From positions 2,560,747-2,624,746 of the forward strand of contig OZ253584.1 in assembly GCA_965263165.1 (NCBI GenBank): a stretch of 64,000 bases of DNA, read 5' to 3'. The DNA comes from Dehalococcoidia bacterium. Its GTDB lineage: Bacteria > Chloroflexota > Dehalococcoidia > Lucifugimonadales > SAR202-VII-2. Every line of letters begins with the position of its first letter. The first letter of the stretch is position 1. This document shows, piece after piece, positions 5,272-35,789 of the stretch. Under the pieces are notes generated by a model. It saw only the letters and a program-made list of their open reading frames with translations. It did not search any database and was not told the DNA's origin. The translations under genes and the position numbers were made by a program.

Positions 5272-5387
5272 CCCCTACCCTTGTGCAGATAGCGCTCCTC
5301 CCGACTCCACCACTGTTGCGACGCTGAGACGGTGAGCGAGGCTTTGTAACGTTACTCAGCCGGATTTCGGGGTTTGCAGGCACGAAG

Positions 5388-5494
5388 CCATTACAAAGGC
5401 ATTACAGGTCATTACAAAGCCATTAAGAGTCGCTACAGAGTCATTACGGAGTCGTTACGGACCGTTGCCCAGCCGTTACGAGTCATTCGTCATT
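5388..5494. repeat. Degenerate tandem array of about 11 units of 10-11 bp (consensus approx. GTCATTACRRA)
   Basis: gccattacaaa ggcattacag gtcattacaaa gccattaaga gtcgctacaga gtcattacgga gtcgttacgga ccgttgccca gccgttacga gtcattc gtcatt. Confidence 0.75.
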
Positions 5495-7453: not shown

Positions 7454-7603
7454 TCTCTGGAATGCCCAACACTTTCCAGACACTACCGCTTTGTACCGAC
7501 ACAGGAGAGCCGGATGCGATGAAAGCCACACGTCCGGTTCGGAGGGGGGCCGACGGAAGAGTGCTCCGGGGCACCGGAGTAACTCGCCTGCGGCCTACCC
7601 TAC
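7454..7603 (+). mobile_element. Group II intron 3' remnant (domains V and VI only)
   Basis: DV gAGCcggatgcgatgaaagccacacgtccggttc (7507-7540) followed by ggagggggg and DVI ending cctaccctAC at 7603. Confidence 0.85.
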
Positions 7604-17783: not shown

Positions 17784-18686
17784 GTGCAACTCCCGATTCA
17801 CAATAGTAAGGGTGAAGTAGTCGGCCAGGCTGAGGTGGCGGATGTCCTCTTTGGCGGGCCGGTCAACCGGCCCCTGCTCCACCAGGTCCTGGTAACCCAG
17901 CTTGGCAATCACCGAGCGGGAACCCACTCCACGAAGACCCGCGCGGAAGTGGCCGGAGGCGGTCGCAAGCCCCGGCCCCAGAAGTACACCGGACGGTCCC
18001 GCCAGGGGAGCATTCGCTCGCCCCAGTGGAAGGGCGGCGGCATCGTCTTTGGCCCCAGGCCCCGCAGCCATCGCCGCGATATTCCCAAGAAGATGCGCAG
18101 GCTGGCCCTCCGGTCAGCGCTGTCTTCCCGGGTGGGTTCCAGCGAAGTGATCCTGCTCGAGTCCTTAGCCTTCGCCGCGCCCAAGACGCAGGAGCTCCGC
18201 ATCGCCCTCCAGAACGTGGGCGCCCACAGGTCCACGCTCGTGGTCATCGGCGAACCCACGCGGACTGTCGCGCTGTCGGCCCGCAACCTGCCGAGGGTTC
18301 GGGTTCTGCCAGCCGACAGGCTCAATGTTGAAGACGTGCTGCGGTACCATCGGATCGTCATGACGGTGGATGCCGTCCGCAAGGCGGAAGAGCTATGGGC
18401 AAGGCCGCTGATGAAACGAGAGGTCGGCCTACTGGAGGCGGTTGTGACAGCGCCGGAGGCTGAGGCAGAGGACGCCGCGGCCACTGAGGATAGATCTGAA
18501 GTTTCCGCCCAGCCCGAGGCGGCAATCGCGGCCTCAGTGGATGACGCAGCCGCGGCAACAGATGACGATGCCGACGCGACAGCGGAGGCTTCTGTCGAGG
18601 CGCCCTTAGAAGCCGGCTCCGAGCCAGCGCCTGCCGCTTCTTCGGAAGAAGCGGCGGAAGACGGCCAACCAGAGGACAAAGAGTAA
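17784..18686 (+). CDS. rplD: 50S ribosomal protein uL4 with an acidic C-terminal extension (~85 aa)
   Basis: [30 protein letters not shown] core, then an A/E/D-rich tail. Confidence 0.97.
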
Positions 18687-20508: not shown

Positions 20509-21345
20509 TTGGGCCACAAAACCCATCCCGTGGGCTTTCGCCTCGGAGTGATCAAGGACTGGCAGGCCAGGTGGTTCGGTCATAGGGCCGAAGATTACCG
20601 AAAGCAGGTCCAGGAAGACCTTCGCATCCGGTTGATCATCTTCAAGAAGCTGCCGGACGCGGGCATCTCCCGCGTCGAAATCGAACGCGGGTCTCAGGAA
20701 CTGGTCGTCAATATTCACACCGCCAGGCCCGGGATCGTCATCGGACGCGGCGGGACGCGGGTGGAGGAATTGCGGCAGGCGTTGGAAAGCCTGACCGAGA
20801 ACAAGGCCCGGCTCAATGTCGTGGAGGTTCGGAACCCTGAGCTCGACGCCTTTCTGGTGGCGCGCAACATCGCCGACCAGCTTGAGCGGCGTATCGCCTA
20901 TCGGCGGGCGATGCGCCAAGGCCTCACCCGTACGATGCAGGCCGGGGCCAAGGGCATCAAGATCGTGTCCTCGGGTAGGCTGGGAGGCGCCGAGATCGCC
21001 CGCCAGGAAAAGGCCATGGATGGCAGGGTGCCCCTGCACACGCTTCGGGCGGACATTGACTTCGCCATCGCCGAGGCCCGGACCCAGATGGGGGTGGTCG
21101 GAGTGAAGGTGTGGATCTACAAGGGCGACATCCTGCCAGAGCTTGACGTCGCTGAAGAGGACATGGCGCCCATTGAGTTCCAGGTCGTGGACGAGGGCGG
21201 TGAGAAGGCTGCGGCGGAAGAGGGCGGGATGGCGTCTGTAGCGGCGCCTCAAGCTGCGGCCGCAGCAGACCCGCCGGTTGCTGGACAGCTCGCGGCGGAA
21301 CCGACGTCCCCTGCCCCACAGGCGGCGGACGGAGAAAGGACCTAG
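20509..21345 (+). CDS. rpsC: 30S ribosomal protein uS3 with an acidic C-terminal extension
   Basis: [34 protein letters not shown], then an E/A/P-rich tail. Confidence 0.98.
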
Positions 21346-21818: not shown

Positions 21819-22028
21819 ATGGCAAAACTAAGGGCAAGCGAGCTGAGGCAGTTGAATGATAAGGAGTTGGCGGACGAGCTCTTGGAGTCGCGCCGCTCCC
21901 TGCTGAATCTCCGCTTCAGAAAGGCAACGATGCAGTTGGACAACGTTAACGAGGTGGGCCAGGCCCGGAAGAAGGTGGCCCAGCTTCTCACCATCATCCA
22001 AGAGCGGCGGCTCGTAAGCGAGAGCTAG
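21819..22028 (+). CDS. rpmC: 50S ribosomal protein uL29
   Basis: [16 protein letters not shown]; position in the operon. Confidence 0.95.
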
Positions 22029-22030
22029 TA

Positions 22031-23335
22031 ATGGCGAACCGAAGGACCCGCGTTGGGCGGGTGATCAGAGACAAGATGGAAAAGACCGTCATTGTGGCGG
22101 TGGAGCGGCGGACGACGCACCCGGTGTACCGGAAGACCGTCAAACGACTGACGAAGTTCGCGGCACATGCCGAGAGCGGCGTTTGCTCGGTGGGGGACCT
22201 CGTCCGCATCGAGGAAACGCGGCCACTGTCGCGCTCCAAGCGCTGGCGGGTCATAGAGGTCCTGGAGCGCAAGGCGATCCCGGTGGCAGCCACTGTGGAG
22301 GTGGCAGTGCAAGAGGCCGTCGCCCCGCCAACGCAGGCGCCGGCGGTTGCCCAGGAAACCCCCGCAGCTGAGGTAGCTCCCGGTGAGGTGGCTGAGGCGG
22401 AAGCGCCCGTTGTGGAGGCTTCGTTGGACGAGCCGGTAGCTGAGACGGAGGCATCCGCTGAGGAGGCCTCGTCGGACGAGCCGGTGGCTGAGACGGAGGC
22501 TCCCGTTGAGGATGCGCCGTCGGATGAGCCAGTGCCTGAGACGGGGGCGGCCGTTGAGGATGCGCCGTCGGACGAGCCAGTGGCTGAGACGGAGGCGGCC
22601 GTTGAGGATGCGCCGTCCGATGAGCCGGGAGCTGAGGTGGAAGCGCTCGCTGAGGAGGCTTCGTCGGACGAGCCGGCAGTTGAGGTGGAAGCGCTCGCTG
22701 AGCAGGCTTCGTCGGACGAGCCGGCAGTTGAGGTGGAAGCGTCCGTTGAGGAAGCTTCGTCAGACGAGCCGGTAGCTGAGGCGGAAGCGCCCGTTGAGGA
22801 GGCTTCGTCTGACGAGCCGGCAGTTGAGGTGGAAGCGCTCGCTGAGCAGGCTTCGTCGGACGAGCCGGTAGCTGAGGCGGAAGCGCTCGCTGAGCAGGCT
22901 TCGTCGGACGAGCCGGCAGTTGAGGTGGAAGCGCTCGCTGAGGAGGCTTCGTCGGACGAGCCGGCAGTTGAGGTGGAAGCGTCCGTTGAGGAAGCTTCGT
23001 CAGACGAGCCGGTAGCTGAGGCGGAAGCGCCCGTTGAGGAGGCTTCGTCTGACGAGCCGGCAGTTGAGGTGGAAGCGCCCGTTGAGGAAGCTTCGTCAGA
23101 CGAGCCGGTAGCTGAGGCGGAAGCGCCCGTTGAGGAGGCTTCGTCGGACGAGCCGGTAGCTGAGGCGGAGGCGCTTGTTGAGGATGCGCCAGCGGATGAG
23201 CCGGTAGCTGAGGTGGAAGCGCCCGCTGAGGAGGCTTCGTCGGATGAGGCGGTAGCTGAAGCGGAGGCGTCCGTTGACGAGGCGCCGTCGGAATCCAGTG
23301 AATCCCGGCAGGACGAGCCGGAGAAAGCCCAATGA
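22031..23335 (+). CDS. rpsQ: 30S ribosomal protein uS17 with a ~345-aa acidic repeat tail
   Basis: [33 protein letters not shown] core, then 16-aa repeats; stop overlaps the rplN ATG. Confidence 0.95.
22409..23272 (+). repeat. 18 tandem 48-bp coding repeats ((A/V)EEASSDEP(V/A)(A/V)E(A/V)EA(P/L/S))
   Basis: 48-bp period verified (e.g. tgaggtggaagcg at 22681 and 22729); no unique spacers. Confidence 0.95.
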
Positions 23336-23700
23336 TTCAGCCCCAAACTCGCCTGCGAGTAGCTGACAACTCCGGCGCCAAGGTCATCATGTGCATAAAC
23401 GTTCCGGGCGGCACGCGAAGACGTTACGCCCGGGTCGGCGACATCATCGTGGCATCCGTGAAGGAGGCCATCCCCAACTCGGCGGTGCCCAAGGGGGAGG
23501 TCATCCGAGCCGTCATCGTGCGGACCACCAACCCTACCCGACGGCCCGACGGCACCTACATCCGCTTCGACGACAACGCAGCGGTGGTGCTGTCCGACCA
23601 GCACAATCCGAGGGGAACCCGTATATTCGGGCCCGTCGCTCGAGAGCTGCGAGAGAAGGCATTCACGCGCATCGTTTCCCTGGCTCCGGAGGTGCTCTAG
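23332..23700 (+). CDS. rplN: 50S ribosomal protein uL14
   Basis: [32 protein letters not shown]. Confidence 0.99.
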
Positions 23701-23701
23701 C

Positions 23702-24019
23702 ATGGCGGCAAAGATTCGAAAGGGAGATACGGTGGAGATCATGCGGGGCAAGGACCGGGGCAAGCGGGGCGCCGTTCAGGGATTGGACCCCAAGAACGGT
23801 CTGATTATGGTGGAGGGGCTCAACCAGGTTACGAAGCACGTGCGCCCCAACCCCAGGATGCGCCAGGCCGGACGGATTACCAGCGAGATGCCGTTGCCTG
23901 TTGGCAACGTCCGGTTCGTATGCGTCAATTGCGGAAAGGCCGTCCGGGTGGGTTTTCAGATGCTCGACGATGGAACTAAGGTCCGGGTGTGCAAACACTG
24001 TGGCGAGTCGGTGGAGTAA
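23702..24019 (+). CDS. rplX: 50S ribosomal protein uL24
   Basis: [17 protein letters not shown] (KOW). Confidence 0.98.
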
Positions 24020-24729
24020 TGGACGACAACGAAGTTCAACAGCCAGAGGAAGCCGCCAAGGCCGAAAAGCCCGCGGCCCAAGAGAAAGCGCCGGCGGCGC
24101 CCCGCCAACAGCGGGCGAAGGGCCGGCGTCAGCAACCCAAGGCCACGGCTGAGGACGGCAACGCAGCGGCGGAGCCGCCGCCCAGCAGGCCCAGGATGTT
24201 GGAGCGCTATCGTCAGGAAGTGGCCCCTGCGATGGTCCGCGACTTCAGCTACGCCAACGTGATGGAGATTCCGCGGGTCACCAAGGTGGTGGTCAACGTG
24301 GGGTTGGGCGAGAGCCTCCTGAATCCGCGGGCGCTTGAAGCAGCAATGGGGGATCTCACGGCCATTGTTGGCCAACGCCCCGTCACGACCAAGGCTCGGA
24401 AGTCAATCGCCGGATTCAAGCTGCGCAAGGACATGACCATCGGAGCGATGGTGACGTTGCGGGGCAGGCGGATGTGGGAGTTCCTGGACAGGCTCATCAA
24501 CGTGGCCCTGCCCCGGATCCGCGACTTCCGCGGCATATCCCGCCATAGCTTCGACGGCCGGGGCAACTTCTCGCTGGGACTGCGCGAGCAAGTCATTTTC
24601 CCCGAGATCGACTACAATTCGGTGGACCGGCTGCGCGGCCTGCAGATCGCCATCGTCACCACGGCAAAGACCGACGAGGAGAGCCTGCGGCTGCTGGAGC
24701 ATCTGGGCATGCCGTTCAGCAAGAACTGA
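24019..24729 (+). CDS. rplE: 50S ribosomal protein uL5 with an N-terminal extension
   Basis: [29 protein letters not shown]; ATG overlaps the rplX stop. Confidence 0.97.
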
Positions 24730-26319: not shown

Positions 26320-27099
26320 ATGACCACCAATCAGAACCGCCAAGACCGCGTCGACCCTTCAGACCTCAACCTCACGGAGAAGGTGGTGCAAATCCGCCGT
26401 GTGGCCAAGGTGGTCAAGGGTGGCCGGCGCCTCAGCTTCAACGCCATGGTCGTCATCGGCGATGGCGACGGACACGTGGGCATCGGACTGGGCCGGGCCA
26501 CGGCTGTGCCGGACGCCGTGCGCAAGGGCACGGCCATCGCCCGCAAGAGCCTCGTCCGGGTGTCCCGGCGAGGCAACACGGTGCCCCACGAGACCATTGC
26601 GCGCCACGGGCCGGCGCGGGTGCTCATAAAGCCCGCGTCCGCCGGGACCGGGATCATCGCCGGGGGCGCAGTGCGAGCCGTCCTGGAGCAGGCCGGCATC
26701 AAGGATGTGATCAGCAAGTGCCTGGGCAGCAGAAACCCCATCAACGTGGCCAAGGCCACGGTCAATGGGCTGGCCTCCATGCGTGATCCCGCGGTTGAGC
26801 TAGCGCGCCGCAAGGGTATTTCCCTATCCGCCGCCGTCGCCGCCATCAGGGCGCCCGCGCCTGAGGTTGTGGCCCCGCGGGAGGTCGCCCTGCCGGACGA
26901 ACCCGCTCCGCAGCCGTCTGCCGAGGCGGATGCCGCCGGAGCGCCGACCGCCGCAGTTGGGGAGACCCCGGCGGGAGAGGAAGCGGCGTCCACAGGCCCC
27001 ACCCGGGAAAGCGGCCCGGAGCAACGCATATTCTCGCCCGAAGACGATTCCAGCGAGGGAGCCCCCGCGGCGGAAGCCGGAGGGGATGCCTCCTCTTAG
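26320..27099 (+). CDS. rpsE: 30S ribosomal protein uS5 with an A/P/E-rich C-terminal extension
   Basis: RVAKVVKGGRRLSF, GTGIIAGG. Confidence 0.98.
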   Translation: MTTNQNRQDRVDPSDLNLTEKVVQIRRVAKVVKGGRRLSFNAMVVIGDGDGHVGIGLGRATAVPDAVRKGTAIARKSLVRVSRRGNTVPHETIARHGPARVLIKPASAGTGIIAGGAVRAVLEQAGIKDVISKCLGSRNPINVAKATVNGLASMRDPAVELARRKGISLSAAVAAIRAPAPEVVAPREVALPDEPAPQPSAEADAAGAPTAAVGETPAGEEAASTGPTRESGPEQRIFSPEDDSSEGAPAAEAGGDASS

Positions 27100-32705: not shown

Positions 32706-33749
32706 TTGCACACAGCTATGGTAACCAATGGGGTTCCCCGCCCCGAAGTCAAGACACTCGAGAGCACCAACATCTATGCAAAATTCGCCGTGGAACCCTT
32801 GGAGCGGGGCTTCGCCACCTCCTTGGGCAATCCCTTGCGCCGGGTTCTGCTCAATAGCGTTCTAGGGGCAGCGGTCACCTGGATTCGGATTGATGGGATT
32901 CTTCACGAGTACACGGCCATCCCAAACGTGAGGGAGGATGTCCAAGAGTTCATCCTGAACGTCAAATCCCTCCGGCTGCGCGCCCGCAGCGAACGCTCCT
33001 GCACCCTTCAGTTGGAGACAGAGGGCCAGACGGAGGTGTACGCCAGGGACATTGTGGCGCCGCCGGACTTCGAGATCATGAACCCGGACCTGCTGCTGGC
33101 CACGCTGGACTCCCCGGAGGCCAGGCTGTCCGTGCAGTTCAACGTCGAGCACGGCAAGGGCTACCAGCCCGCGGAAGCCAAGGACGGCATGCCCATCGGC
33201 GTTATTCCGGTGGACGCCATCTTCAGCCCCGTTCGAAAGGTGAACTACACGGTTGAGCACACGCGGGTCGGTCAGTTCACCGACTACGAACGCCTGATCG
33301 TGGAGGTGCTCACCGACGGCACCCTCAACCCCCTGGAGGCCATGCGCTCGGCCGCCGACATGCTGGTGGAGCACTTCTTCCTCCTGACGAACGCGGCGGC
33401 AGCCGAGGGCAAAGAGGGTTCTCCGGCCGCTCTATCGGAGCCGATCGAGACGCTAGGCCTGACATCCCGCACAATGAACAGCTTGAAGCGGGCCGGGCTC
33501 AACAATGTGGGCGATCTTGTGGAGATGCCCAAACAGGTACTCCTGAAGACGCGGAACTTCGGCGAGAAGTCCATGCAGGAAGTGTACGAGAAGCTAGAGG
33601 AGATGGGGTTTGTCCTGCCCGACGACGCGGCGGGAGTGGCAGGAAGCCCCGAAGGGGATGCGCCGGATGATGAGGCGGGCAGCTTCGAAGACGATGCGGC
33701 GGTGGCGACCGCCGCTGAGGCGCCCGATGAAGAGGAGGAGACAGCATGA
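32706..33749 (+). CDS. rpoA: RNA polymerase alpha subunit with an acidic tail
   Basis: EPLERGF, LGNPLRRVLL, HEY, KVNYTVE, RNFGEKS. Confidence 0.98.
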   Translation: MHTAMVTNGVPRPEVKTLESTNIYAKFAVEPLERGFATSLGNPLRRVLLNSVLGAAVTWIRIDGILHEYTAIPNVREDVQEFILNVKSLRLRARSERSCTLQLETEGQTEVYARDIVAPPDFEIMNPDLLLATLDSPEARLSVQFNVEHGKGYQPAEAKDGMPIGVIPVDAIFSPVRKVNYTVEHTRVGQFTDYERLIVEVLTDGTLNPLEAMRSAADMLVEHFFLLTNAAAAEGKEGSPAALSEPIETLGLTSRTMNSLKRAGLNNVGDLVEMPKQVLLKTRNFGEKSMQEVYEKLEEMGFVLPDDAAGVAGSPEGDAPDDEAGSFEDDAAVATAAEAPDEEEETA

Positions 33750-34105: not shown

Positions 34106-34930
34106 GTGCGTAGCCAACCCCTCGAGACATCGAGGAGGCGGATCGCCCTTCGCATTGAGTACGATGGAACCGAATACCTGGGCTCGCAGCTTCAAAGCTC
34201 CGGGCCCACAATCCAGGGAGAGCTCGAGCGAGCCCTGGAGCAGTTGACCAGCACCTTTACACGAGTGAGCTTGGCAGGCCGCACGGACGCCGGGGTTCAT
34301 GCCCTGGGACAGGTGGCAGCCTTCACAACGCCGGCCCCCTACCCGCCTGATACGTTCCGACGGGCTCTCAACGCCCACCTGCCGGACGGCATCAAGGTCC
34401 GGGCCGCCCACGACGTGGCGGCCTCCTTCGATCCAAGGCGCGAGGCGGCAAGCCGCACCTATTGCTACGCCATCCTGAACCGCGATGCGCCGTCGCCGCT
34501 ACTGCGGCGCTACACGCACCACGTGGCGCAGGCCCTATCCGTCGATGCGATGGACATGGCGGCAAGGAGCCTTGAAGGGCGACGCGACGCGGCATCGTTC
34601 GGAGGGATCCCTGGCGCGGGGCGGTCGTCTGTGAGGACGGTGCAGTTGTGCCGGGTCTTCAAGCAGGGGGACCTAGTCCTGCTGGTGATCCGGGCGAGCG
34701 CCTTCCTTCAGGGGCAGGTGCGGCGCACCGCAGGAACGTTGGCCCAGGTCGGCGCAGGGAAGCTTGATGGCGATGGATTCCTGCGGATCAGGGATGCGGC
34801 GCAGGCCGGGGCTGCGGGGCCAGCCTTGCCGGCGCAGGGCCTGTGCCTGCTCGCAGTGGAGTACAGCGGCCTACCGCCAGCGCCTTTGGAGGGCTGGCCG
34901 CCCGGAGCGCGCCCGCCGGCGCAACAGTAG
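34106..34930 (+). CDS. truA: tRNA pseudouridine(38-40) synthase
   Basis: [31 protein letters not shown]. Confidence 0.96.
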
Positions 34931-35063
34931 CCGCCGGCGCAGGATTGAGACAGGTTGGCATCGCCGCGAGGAGAACGCGAGGAAGACACCGGGGCCGTAC
35001 GCCCCGCGAATAGGACAGGTAGGACCGCCCGCGTGGGTCTCGCCTGACACAAGGAATATTGCA

Positions 35064-35789
35064 ATGGTTGAAAAGACGTATAGTCCGAAAGCATCAGAGC
35101 TATCGAGCACCTGGCGCGTCATAGATGCCGAAGGCCAAGTGCTGGGGCGGCTGGCGACGCAGATCGCAGGGCTGCTCCAGGGCAAGCACAAGCCGGGGTA
35201 CGCGCGCCACATGTTGACCGGCGACTTCATCATCGTCGTGAACGCCGAAAAGGTGGCGATCACGGGGCGAAAGCGCGCGCAGAAGGTGTACTACCGCCAC
35301 ACCGGCTACATGGGCCACCTGAAGGAGACGCCCCTGTGGAAGATGCTGGAAACGCACCCGGAGCGGGTGCTTCAGAAAGCCATCAAGGGCATGCTGCCAA
35401 AGAACTCCCTGGGCAGCCAGATGTTTCGACGGCTGAAGATTTACCCGGGACCCGATCATCCGCACCAGGCTCAGGTCCTCGGTGGAGAGAGGGCCAATCT
35501 GCGCACGCCGCAGCGCCCGCTAGAAGAGCGGCGAAAGAAACGCCCCGGGCGAGTCAAGACTCCTGTCGAGGAGGCCGCCGTAGCAGCGGCGGCCGCGGAA
35601 GAAGCAGTCTCCACTATCGAGGAGCCGGCAGCCGCGGCTGAGGAGCAGACGGTGGCGGAGGCTTCCCAGGAGCCGGTGGCCGAGGGACAGACGGACGCCG
35701 TTGCCGGGCCGGAGGGAGAGGACGTGGCCCCCGCCGATGAGCCCGCCGAGGCGGAAGCCGCCGAGACCGAAGAGAAAAGAGAGGCCTAA
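35064..35789 (+). CDS. rplM: 50S ribosomal protein uL13 with a C-terminal basic-then-acidic extension
   Basis: [38 protein letters not shown] core. Confidence 0.97.

Follow-up and report, generated by a model that had tools for sequence, protein, structure and literature searches.

A tandem repeat array in rpsQ

We analyzed a 64,000-nt stretch (the window) of contig OZ253584.1, from an uncultured Dehalococcoidia (Chloroflexota) bacterium, in which the gene for ribosomal protein uS17, rpsQ, comprises a conventional core followed by a long array of tandem repeats. The gene belongs to an S10/spc cluster on the plus strand that runs through EF-G, uS10, uL3, uL4, (uL23), uL2, uS19, uL22, uS3, uL16, uL29, and uS17, continues with uL14, uL24, uL5, uS14, uS8, uL6, uL18, and uS5 and further on SecY, Adk, and Map, and has uS13, uS11, uS4, RpoA, and, further on, uL13 in its last part. 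Its immediate neighbors are rpmC (uL29, 21819 to 22028) and rplN (uL14), an order that is kept in all related loci. The encoded protein of 434 amino acids (aa) matches the Pfam family Ribosomal_S17 (PF00366) at aa 9 to 76, over the whole 68-position profile (E value, 4e-27; 94.5 bits against a cutoff of 25.9), and aa 5 to 81 align with solved bacterial uS17 chains (best PDB E value, 3e-23). An AlphaFold model computed with a 12-sequence alignment shows the core as a five-stranded barrel of the oligonucleotide/oligosaccharide-binding (OB) fold, with strands at residues 6 to 14, 19 to 29, 36 to 46, 57 to 62, and 72 to 79 and a predicted local distance difference test (pLDDT) score of 79 to 96 per 10-residue block. 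The gene is a genuine, single-copy-type rpsQ in which a normal, basic OB-fold core is fused to a tail (Table 1).

Tandem Repeats Finder reported the array at 22387 to 23292, with a period of 48, 18.9 copies, 86% matches, 0% indels, and a score of 1119; there is no other large tandem array within the window. Read in frame from 22409, the array has 18 units, each of 16 aa, after which come a degenerate unit and the C-terminal end. The units are arranged head to tail without indels and their length is a multiple of three, as in a coding minisatellite. An exact 135-nt run recurs at an offset of 240 nt, which equals five units; this confirms the recent block duplication proposed in a sequence-only reading of this DNA. 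That reading had also described the core, the acidic repeat tail, and an intact frame whose stop overlaps the start of rplN; the open reading frame (ORF) list, Pfam, and Tandem Repeats Finder bear out each of these elements, and the TGA of rpsQ and the ATG of rplN share the tetranucleotide ATGA at 23332 to 23335. Its observation that the tail lacks lysine and arginine was also correct, except that the length given, about 300 residues, was too short: the stretch extends for approximately 345 residues, from K81 to R427. In total, the tail (aa 82 to 434; 353 aa) contains 117 aspartate and glutamate residues versus 2 lysine and arginine residues, for a net charge of −115, compared with +13 for the core.

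The other two plus-strand frames across rpsQ contain 12 and 46 stops and were rejected as coding sequences, being shadow ORFs of the repeat. A 589-aa ORF on the minus strand (21994 to 23763) was likewise discarded as a shadow of the repeat; it overlaps rpmC and rplN in antisense orientation.

Codon usage in the tail departs from that of the neighboring highly expressed genes (GCT, 40% versus 10%; GCC, 9% versus 50%; GTT plus GTA, 61% versus 20%). This pattern suits a founder unit that was amplified recently, and hence a young array, better than optimization over the long term, and it accounts for the strong GC skew of the array. Codons ending in C are strongly depleted there (22387 to 23292), and the skew reaches +0.29. 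The motif GGAGG occurs at 14.3 per kb in the array versus 2.9 per kb elsewhere on the plus strand. A role for these motifs at the mRNA level was considered and rejected: they result directly from GAG-GAG-GCx codons, and glutamate codon choice resembles that of the neighboring genes (GAG share, 78% versus 74%), so there is no separate signal.

TABLE 1 Features of the rpsQ locus and other extended proteins encoded in the window
Feature	Position	Strand	Basis
rpsQ (uS17) coding sequence with tail, 434 aa	22031..23335	+	ORF list, Pfam PF00366, operon position
uS17 core, aa 1-81, basic OB-fold, net charge +13	22031..22273	+	Solved uS17 chains, AlphaFold, pN/pS ~0.1
Linker, aa 82-126 (45 aa), nonrepeated, A/P/V/Q/E-rich	22274..22408	+	Sequence, pN/pS ~0.86, pLDDT <50
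18 in-frame 48-bp units (16 aa)	22409..23272	+	Tandem Repeats Finder, unit table, copy number polymorphic across 14 related contigs
Exact 135-nt block, copy 1	22704..22838	+	Self-comparison, offset 240
Exact 135-nt block, copy 2	22944..23078	+	Self-comparison, offset 240
Degenerate last unit and conserved C-terminal end	23273..23335	+	All intact alleles, small variations
GGAG Shine-Dalgarno-like motif within the last part of rpsQ, 8 nt before the rplN ATG	23320..23323	+	Sequence
rplN (uL14), ATG overlapping the rpsQ TGA	23332..23700	+	ORF, Pfam PF00238
uL4, 300 aa, acidic A/E/P/D-rich C-terminal tail	17784..18686	+	
uS3, 278 aa, acidic A/E/P/D-rich C-terminal tail	20509..21345	+	
uS5, 259 aa, acidic A/E/P/D-rich C-terminal tail	26320..27099	+	
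RpoA, 347 aa, acidic A/E/P/D-rich C-terminal tail	32706..33749	+	
uL13, acidic A/E/P/D-rich C-terminal tail	34764..35789	+	
uL5, ~65-aa mixed-charge N-terminal extension	23989..24729	+	

Repeat copy number differs among closely related strains

A scan of GTDB species-representative genomes identified a Dehalococcoidia metagenome-assembled genome (MAG) (L001; CBDDDS010000002.1) encoding a uS17 of 290 aa, with a core 98% identical to that of the window and the same 16-aa unit. Searching for contigs that encode an identical uL14 or uL24 protein yielded 13 further contigs, of up to 3.3 Mb, from nine ENA assemblies. The array is thereby represented in 14 other contigs of the same species complex, drawn from the nine ENA assemblies and one GenBank MAG, and the uL14 protein is identical in all of them. 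A scan of JGI metagenomes, in which only the cores were compared, returned only distant uS17 cores of ≤62% identity.

Eleven alleles, including that of the window, are intact and contain 10 to 23 units. They encode 290 aa (two contigs), 306 aa (two), 322 aa (two), 354 aa (two), 402 aa, 434 aa (the window), and 498 aa, and all length differences are multiples of 16 aa. This variation is present even where the surrounding sequence is nearly invariant. In five contigs (L030 to L034), the flanks are 99.4 to 99.9% identical to those of the window over two of three segments (L030 is only 97.7% identical downstream), while those of the remaining related contigs are approximately 96 to 98% identical. 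The intact alleles among these five contain 14 to 23 units, compared with 19 in the window, and contigs with 99.4 to 99.9% identical flanks lie up to nine units apart. L032, with six substitutions relative to the window across 4,030 flanking bases, has four more units and a rearranged middle. The variable tail length anticipated by the sequence-only reading is thus observed directly.

Unit maps, in which distinct units are denoted by letters, show that the edges of the array are conserved (IJ…EFGH), with a variable middle that contains block duplications. The block BCAN is present twice in L032, along with a diverged third copy, and unit B is present five times in L031. One 290-aa allele is shared, with a difference of 1 nt, by L001 and L027, which come from different assemblies. 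In several cases, two contigs with different alleles were found in a single assembly (e.g., L030 and L032 in ERZ25071132 and L029 and L088 in ERZ26167216). The array behaves as a coding minisatellite, or variable-number tandem repeat (VNTR), within an essential ribosomal protein gene and evolves much faster than point mutation. It was rejected as a phase-variable contingency locus: the unit is 16 codons long, so that every gain or loss of a copy stays in frame, and the intact alleles differ by whole multiples of 16 aa.

The remaining 4 of the 15 alleles (L030, L034, L036, and L090) carry frame-breaking indels inside the array, namely, a 1-nt deletion, a 25-nt deletion, a 1-nt insertion, and, in one contig, several indels. 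None of these corresponds to unit slippage. The indels are enriched in the array relative to the flanking genes, with only one other split gene (uL5 in L035) in the flanking ∼5 kb. They may be consensus errors, arising from repeats in long-read contigs with 7 to 9× coverage, or genuine truncated alleles.

Substitution patterns within the tail

The ratio of nonsynonymous to synonymous polymorphism (pN/pS) was used to compare the parts of the protein. Between alleles, it is approximately 0.1 for the core. For the linker that joins the core to the array, it is approximately 0.86 (window versus L001), and the linker is therefore nearly unconstrained. Across 68 distinct units, compared with their consensus, pN/pS is 0.54 overall, with the variation concentrated at positions occupied by A, V, P, S, T, or L; unit positions 1, 5, 10, 11, 13, and 16 interchange freely among these residues. 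At the six acidic codons, first and second positions (12 columns) account for 15 deviations from the consensus and third positions (6 columns) for 63, counts that include nonindependent events because the 68 units share recent ancestry. The acidic positions are nonacidic in only 15/408 cells, and a single lysine is present among the 1,088 residues of the units.

Selection on charge would produce such a difference between codon positions, which argues that the tail is translated and selected for its negative charge rather than for its length or exact sequence. In addition, the frame is open in 11/11 intact alleles, with no stop between the core and the tail, and the C-terminal peptide and the ATGA overlap with rplN are conserved among them. 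Translation of the tail had been asserted in the sequence-only reading from the intact frame, and the apparent selection on acidic codons speaks in its favor.

Predicted structure of the tail

The tail has a net charge per residue of 0.326 (magnitude) and a mean hydropathy of 0.449, below the boundary of 0.530, which places it in the disordered region of the charge-hydropathy plot. In the AlphaFold model computed with the 12-sequence alignment, the whole tail has a pLDDT of 32 to 47 and no secondary structure. A single-sequence model, in which the core failed to fold, instead shows a stack of one strand per unit over residues 186 to 364 (pLDDT, 60 to 80). This apparent β-solenoid was not reproduced with the alignment, and it was therefore taken, together with the charge-hydropathy result, to be an artifact of the repeats. 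Thus, the uS17 tail is probably intrinsically disordered. It also does not resemble an RTX-type Ca2+-binding β-roll (GGxGxDxUx), as glycine makes up 0.8% of the tail and there was no match to a Pfam repeat family.

Acidic tails are frequent among the closest uS17 homologs

To place the tail in a broader context, an exhaustive HMMER search was performed with a 90-aa uS17 core as the query, and the best 150 representatives of 50% identity clusters (median length, 137 aa) were analyzed. A C-terminal tail of ≥40 aa with a net charge of ≤−0.15 per residue is present in 45/150 of these closest representatives, and 25/150 have acidic tails of ≥100 aa, the longest of which is 313 aa. The tails are alike in composition (A, E, P, V, D, and T) but not in sequence; several have tandem units of their own, with differing periods, and the units are unrelated to each other. 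A word-indexed search with the full protein added 12 C-terminally tailed uS17 proteins of up to 338 aa. The view of the tail as a singular oddity does not survive this comparison: acidic tails are common on uS17 and other ribosomal proteins of the lineage, and from the sequences at hand the uS17 tail of the window is an extreme, hypervariable case of a lineage-wide trait.

Acidic repeats are also found at the other end of the protein. In a separate lineage represented by 73 clusters (P0004 to P0088), uS17 carries an acidic (EEPVAEEAPA)n repeat at its N terminus; a basic linker comes next, and the core ends in WRLAEVLEAAK. Near relatives within this lineage are 258 to 331 aa long, which suggests that it, too, is variable in length. 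In a further uS17 lineage, a 90% identity cluster (P0012/P0242) contains two proteins, of 244 and 211 aa, whose difference is exactly one 33-aa acidic repeat. Thus, copy number variation in uS17 tails is not unique to the species of the window. No solved bacterial uS17 is longer than 135 aa, and among PDB matches only the mitoribosomal uS17m proteins are of comparable length.

A homology search with the tail alone returned, among the best 8,000 candidates, two uS2 proteins and one E2 acyltransferase and did not recover the window's own allele family. Similar repeats were observed in other ribosomal proteins. A bS1 homolog of 528 aa (P0086) ends in three 16-aa units that are ∼11 to 13/16 identical, by eye, to a rotated uS17 unit, and two uS2 homologs of ∼500 aa (P0024 and P0070) contain about 13 acidic units of 15 to 16 aa. 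These similarities could reflect convergence or the exchange of repeat cassettes among ribosomal protein genes. A few uS17 proteins in the database (P0105 and P0148) have Arg-rich tails (RRRLRNLNRK… and RRRRKSPRR…). Judged by their sequences, they look like frameshifted acidic arrays, as in L030 and L034, and are likely an annotation or assembly pitfall.

Comparison with known systems

Coding VNTRs in bacteria are classically found in surface or contingency proteins, and their repeat regions are used for strain typing. The rpsQ array shares with them head-to-tail units that are multiples of three, strain-variable copy number, conserved edges, a variable middle, and block duplications. It differs in that the host gene encodes an essential, cytoplasmic, primary rRNA-binding ribosomal protein and in that there is no on/off switching. 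A variable-length acidic appendage at the C terminus of a small-subunit ribosomal protein has a precedent in Escherichia coli, where RimK adds an oligoglutamate tail to bS6. That tail is posttranslational, enzyme controlled, and only a few residues long, whereas the uS17 tail is genome encoded and roughly 100-fold longer.

Lineage-specific extensions of bacterial ribosomal proteins, mostly predicted to be disordered, are common throughout bacteria, and their functions are largely elusive (Xue et al. 2022, PMC9534751). In the in-cell Mycoplasma pneumoniae ribosome described in the same study, as in the protein examined here, conserved ribosomal proteins carry extra N- or C-terminal sequence that is mostly disordered and invisible in the map. 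Those extensions comprise tens of residues, compared with ∼350 in uS17, and were not reported to be near-perfect tandem arrays or to be polymorphic among strains; uS17 is not among the 11 proteins analyzed in that study, and its tail here is extreme in charge (−115). The actinobacterial uS17 of Cutibacterium acnes and of Mycobacterium smegmatis/tuberculosis ribosomes provides an example of an extension on the same protein in high-GC bacteria (PDB 5v93 chain q, 135 aa), and these extensions bind 16S rRNA helices h7/h9 (PMC10085706). They are N-terminal, about 10 to 55 aa long, and not described as repeats, whereas the tail in the window is C-terminal, acidic, and repetitive; being acidic, it cannot bind rRNA electrostatically. 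The kinetoplastid uS17m proteins (307 to 336 aa; PDB 6hiv, 6sga, and 7ane) are the only solved uS17 homologs of comparable length, but their extra mass lies on both sides of the core in a protein-rich mitoribosome, and they match the query through the core only. Long D/E-rich disordered segments accompany very basic nucleic acid-binding proteins in the case of the histone chaperones Npm2 and Nap1 as well (bioRxiv 10.1101/2023.09.18.558337). These chaperones are eukaryotic and act in trans; contact of the uS17 tail with its own core or with a partner is hypothetical. Terminal extensions of IF2 have recently been linked to stress tolerance (bioRxiv 10.64898/2026.02.08.704698).

In the literature that was searched, a set outside of which most subscription journals lie, no acidic uS17 repeat tails and no strain-level length polymorphism of a ribosomal protein are described; it contains general work on ribosomal protein extensions, and the Yutin 2012 and Cavalier-Smith 2020 papers have no bearing on the tail. 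The uS17 tail is thus of a known kind, a disordered ribosomal protein extension; what is new is its scale, with a protein five times the normal size and a charge of −115, and its minisatellite behavior in an essential and normally invariant gene.

Origin and possible role of the tail

The explanation that we favor, with moderate confidence, is that rpsQ encodes a translated, disordered, polyanionic tail that is retained for its charge and its harmlessness rather than for its length or sequence. Units of 48 bp would be gained and lost through replication slippage or unequal recombination, chiefly in the central part of the array and frequently as multiunit blocks, with copy changes presumably much more frequent than point substitutions. 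Selection would retain the frame, the acidic residues, and the absence of lysine and arginine, leaving the exact sequence and length free to change, so that the tail would act, if at all, through its bulk physical properties. The C terminus of uS17 lies on the solvent side of the body of the 30S subunit. The tail is presumably present on the mature ribosome, from which it may project as a highly charged, rRNA-repelled bristle off the solvent side of the body, and it could keep the very basic free uS17 and the subunit soluble and free of nonspecific contacts. Any function of the tail, whether as an electrostatic or entropic bristle or as a charge mimic, and equally its status as tolerated junk, is assigned here by inference.

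Several observations weigh against this explanation. Among close strains, the length of uS17 varies 1.7-fold and the linker evolves almost neutrally, which fits weak or no selection on the tail. If the frame-breaking indels in 4/15 alleles are genuine, the tail is dispensable, and a Dehalococcoidia relative with a complete chromosome (L002) has a plain 95-aa uS17, which indicates that the tail is not required for uS17 function as such. Conservation of the acidic residues could mean only that harmful (basic or hydrophobic) variants are purged and that the units share a recent common ancestor. The same observations can be read as signs of tolerated junk, an array expanded by slippage that has no function of its own and survives since the C terminus of uS17 points to the solvent. 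Selection would then only purge basic, hydrophobic, or stop variants and keep the frame open for termination at the rplN start. The range of 10 to 23 units among close strains, the tailless relative, the linker pN/pS, the nonoptimized codon usage, and the possibly truncated alleles are all compatible with this account, and a high-GC genome favors low-complexity runs of GNN codons, as the similar tails on several other proteins in the window may illustrate. Against it, 45 or more of the 150 closest uS17 representatives have acidic tails, built from unrelated units, and another lineage has them at the N terminus, a recurrence that suggests an advantage gained repeatedly or, at a minimum, a strong directional filter. 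Moreover, the shortest of the 11 intact alleles still encodes 290 aa, and ∼350 extra residues per ribosome represent a real synthesis cost. The Shine-Dalgarno-like motif that rplN has of its own (Table 1) makes translational coupling alone a weak reason for keeping ∼1 kb open. On balance, we regard tolerated junk as the main alternative, though a less likely one.

More specific roles fare less well. The sequence-only reading had suggested an RNA mimic or a chaperone. As a nucleic acid mimic, the tail would cover the basic core in cis until displaced by 16S rRNA, serving as a built-in chaperone or specificity filter; in a second version, it would recruit or sequester cationic partners (free ribosomal proteins, polyamines, or Mg2+) in a dosage set by its length. 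The opposite charges of core and tail (+13 versus −115), the conserved acidic positions, and the similar tails that further primary rRNA binders and homologs of uS2 and bS1 carry accord with such mimicry, and the preprint on histone chaperones cited above describes their acidic disordered regions as mimicking the charge of DNA (bioRxiv 10.1101/2023.09.18.558337). It is nonetheless improbable, as it leaves unexplained a 17- to 23-fold excess of negative charge over that neutralizing the +13 core, the lengths differ freely among strains, and the tail sequences are not conserved between lineages. The notion of a length-tunable regulator, raised in the sequence-only reading, meets similar difficulties: free strain-to-strain length variation, the tailless L002, and the near-neutral linker argue against fine tuning. 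A folded repeat domain, with the units stacked as a β-solenoid and possibly stabilized by divalent cations, has in its support the single-sequence AlphaFold model and the alternating A-E-A-E-A stretch in the unit. We consider it very improbable, because the stack disappears with an alignment, perfect repeats are a known source of overconfident single-sequence models, and each 16-residue unit has six acidic residues and about two prolines with no hydrophobic core positions, in addition to the charge-hydropathy and Pfam results. The least probable account is that the array is misassembled (collapsed or expanded) or that the real coding sequence stops at the end of the core. It draws on the difficulty of assembling repeats, on the indels that interrupt the array in four related contigs, and on the absence of the exact protein from a protein database of 5.8 billion clusters; on the other hand, the array architecture with its conserved edge units is shared by 14 independent contigs, one 290-aa allele was recovered from two assemblies with a difference of 1 nt, each of the 11 intact alleles lacks a stop between core and tail, and the rpsQ stop overlaps the rplN start throughout. 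The possibility of an assembly artifact, which the sequence-only reading had proposed to check, can be considered closed, as the array recurs in independent assemblies.

No proteins are considered more conserved or more constant in length than ribosomal proteins, which serve as universal phylogenetic markers. Here, the length of uS17, an assembly protein that binds 16S rRNA as a primary binder, differs by >200 residues among strains with >99% identity elsewhere, and its tail is more negatively charged than that of any solved bacterial ribosomal protein. The recurrence of acidic tails on Chloroflexota-type uS17, and separately on the uS17 of another lineage, shows that they are not annotation noise. 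The alleles of 10 to 23 units constitute a natural series for probing the role of disordered ribosomal protein extensions. They are also a warning for marker gene pipelines and short-read assemblies, in which the rpsQ array will collapse or break. If the polyanionic tail is functional, it would represent a new physical principle for bacterial ribosomes, a charged brush on the subunit surface; if it is neutral, it shows how much nonfunctional sequence an essential ribosomal protein can carry. A bolder proposal, to which we assign only a small chance, is that tail length is itself a selected, rapidly tunable trait by which strains of one species vary how large a polyanionic brush the 30S subunit bears on its back. 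Such a brush, along with the fixed tails of uL4, uS3, uS5, and uL13, would set the surface charge, spacing, or condensation or hibernation behavior of the ribosome, cation buffering, or resistance to cationic ribosome-targeting agents, and tail length would then amount to a contingency-like locus inside the core translation machinery.

Other features of the window

Acidic low-complexity tails of about 35 to 90 aa each are also present on uL4, uS3, uS5, uL13, and RpoA (Table 1). None of these extensions, nor that of uL5, is a long tandem array, and in the related contigs the lengths of the uS3 and uL5 genes, the only ones of this set readable there, are invariant. The ribosome of this organism therefore appears, from its gene sequences, to be decorated with several acidic tails. 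The uL24 protein (105 aa; 23702 to 24019) has a C-terminal CxxC…CxxC segment (VCVNCGK…VCKHCGE) that is zinc ribbon-like in appearance. Roughly 9 kb upstream of the ribosomal cluster, a match to the group II intron family RF00029 in Rfam is located at 7505 to 7603 on the plus strand (54.6 bits; gathering score, 40). A small, AT-richer cluster of tandem repeats with periods of 11, 21, and 32 lies at 5385 to 5458, in an apparently intergenic stretch.

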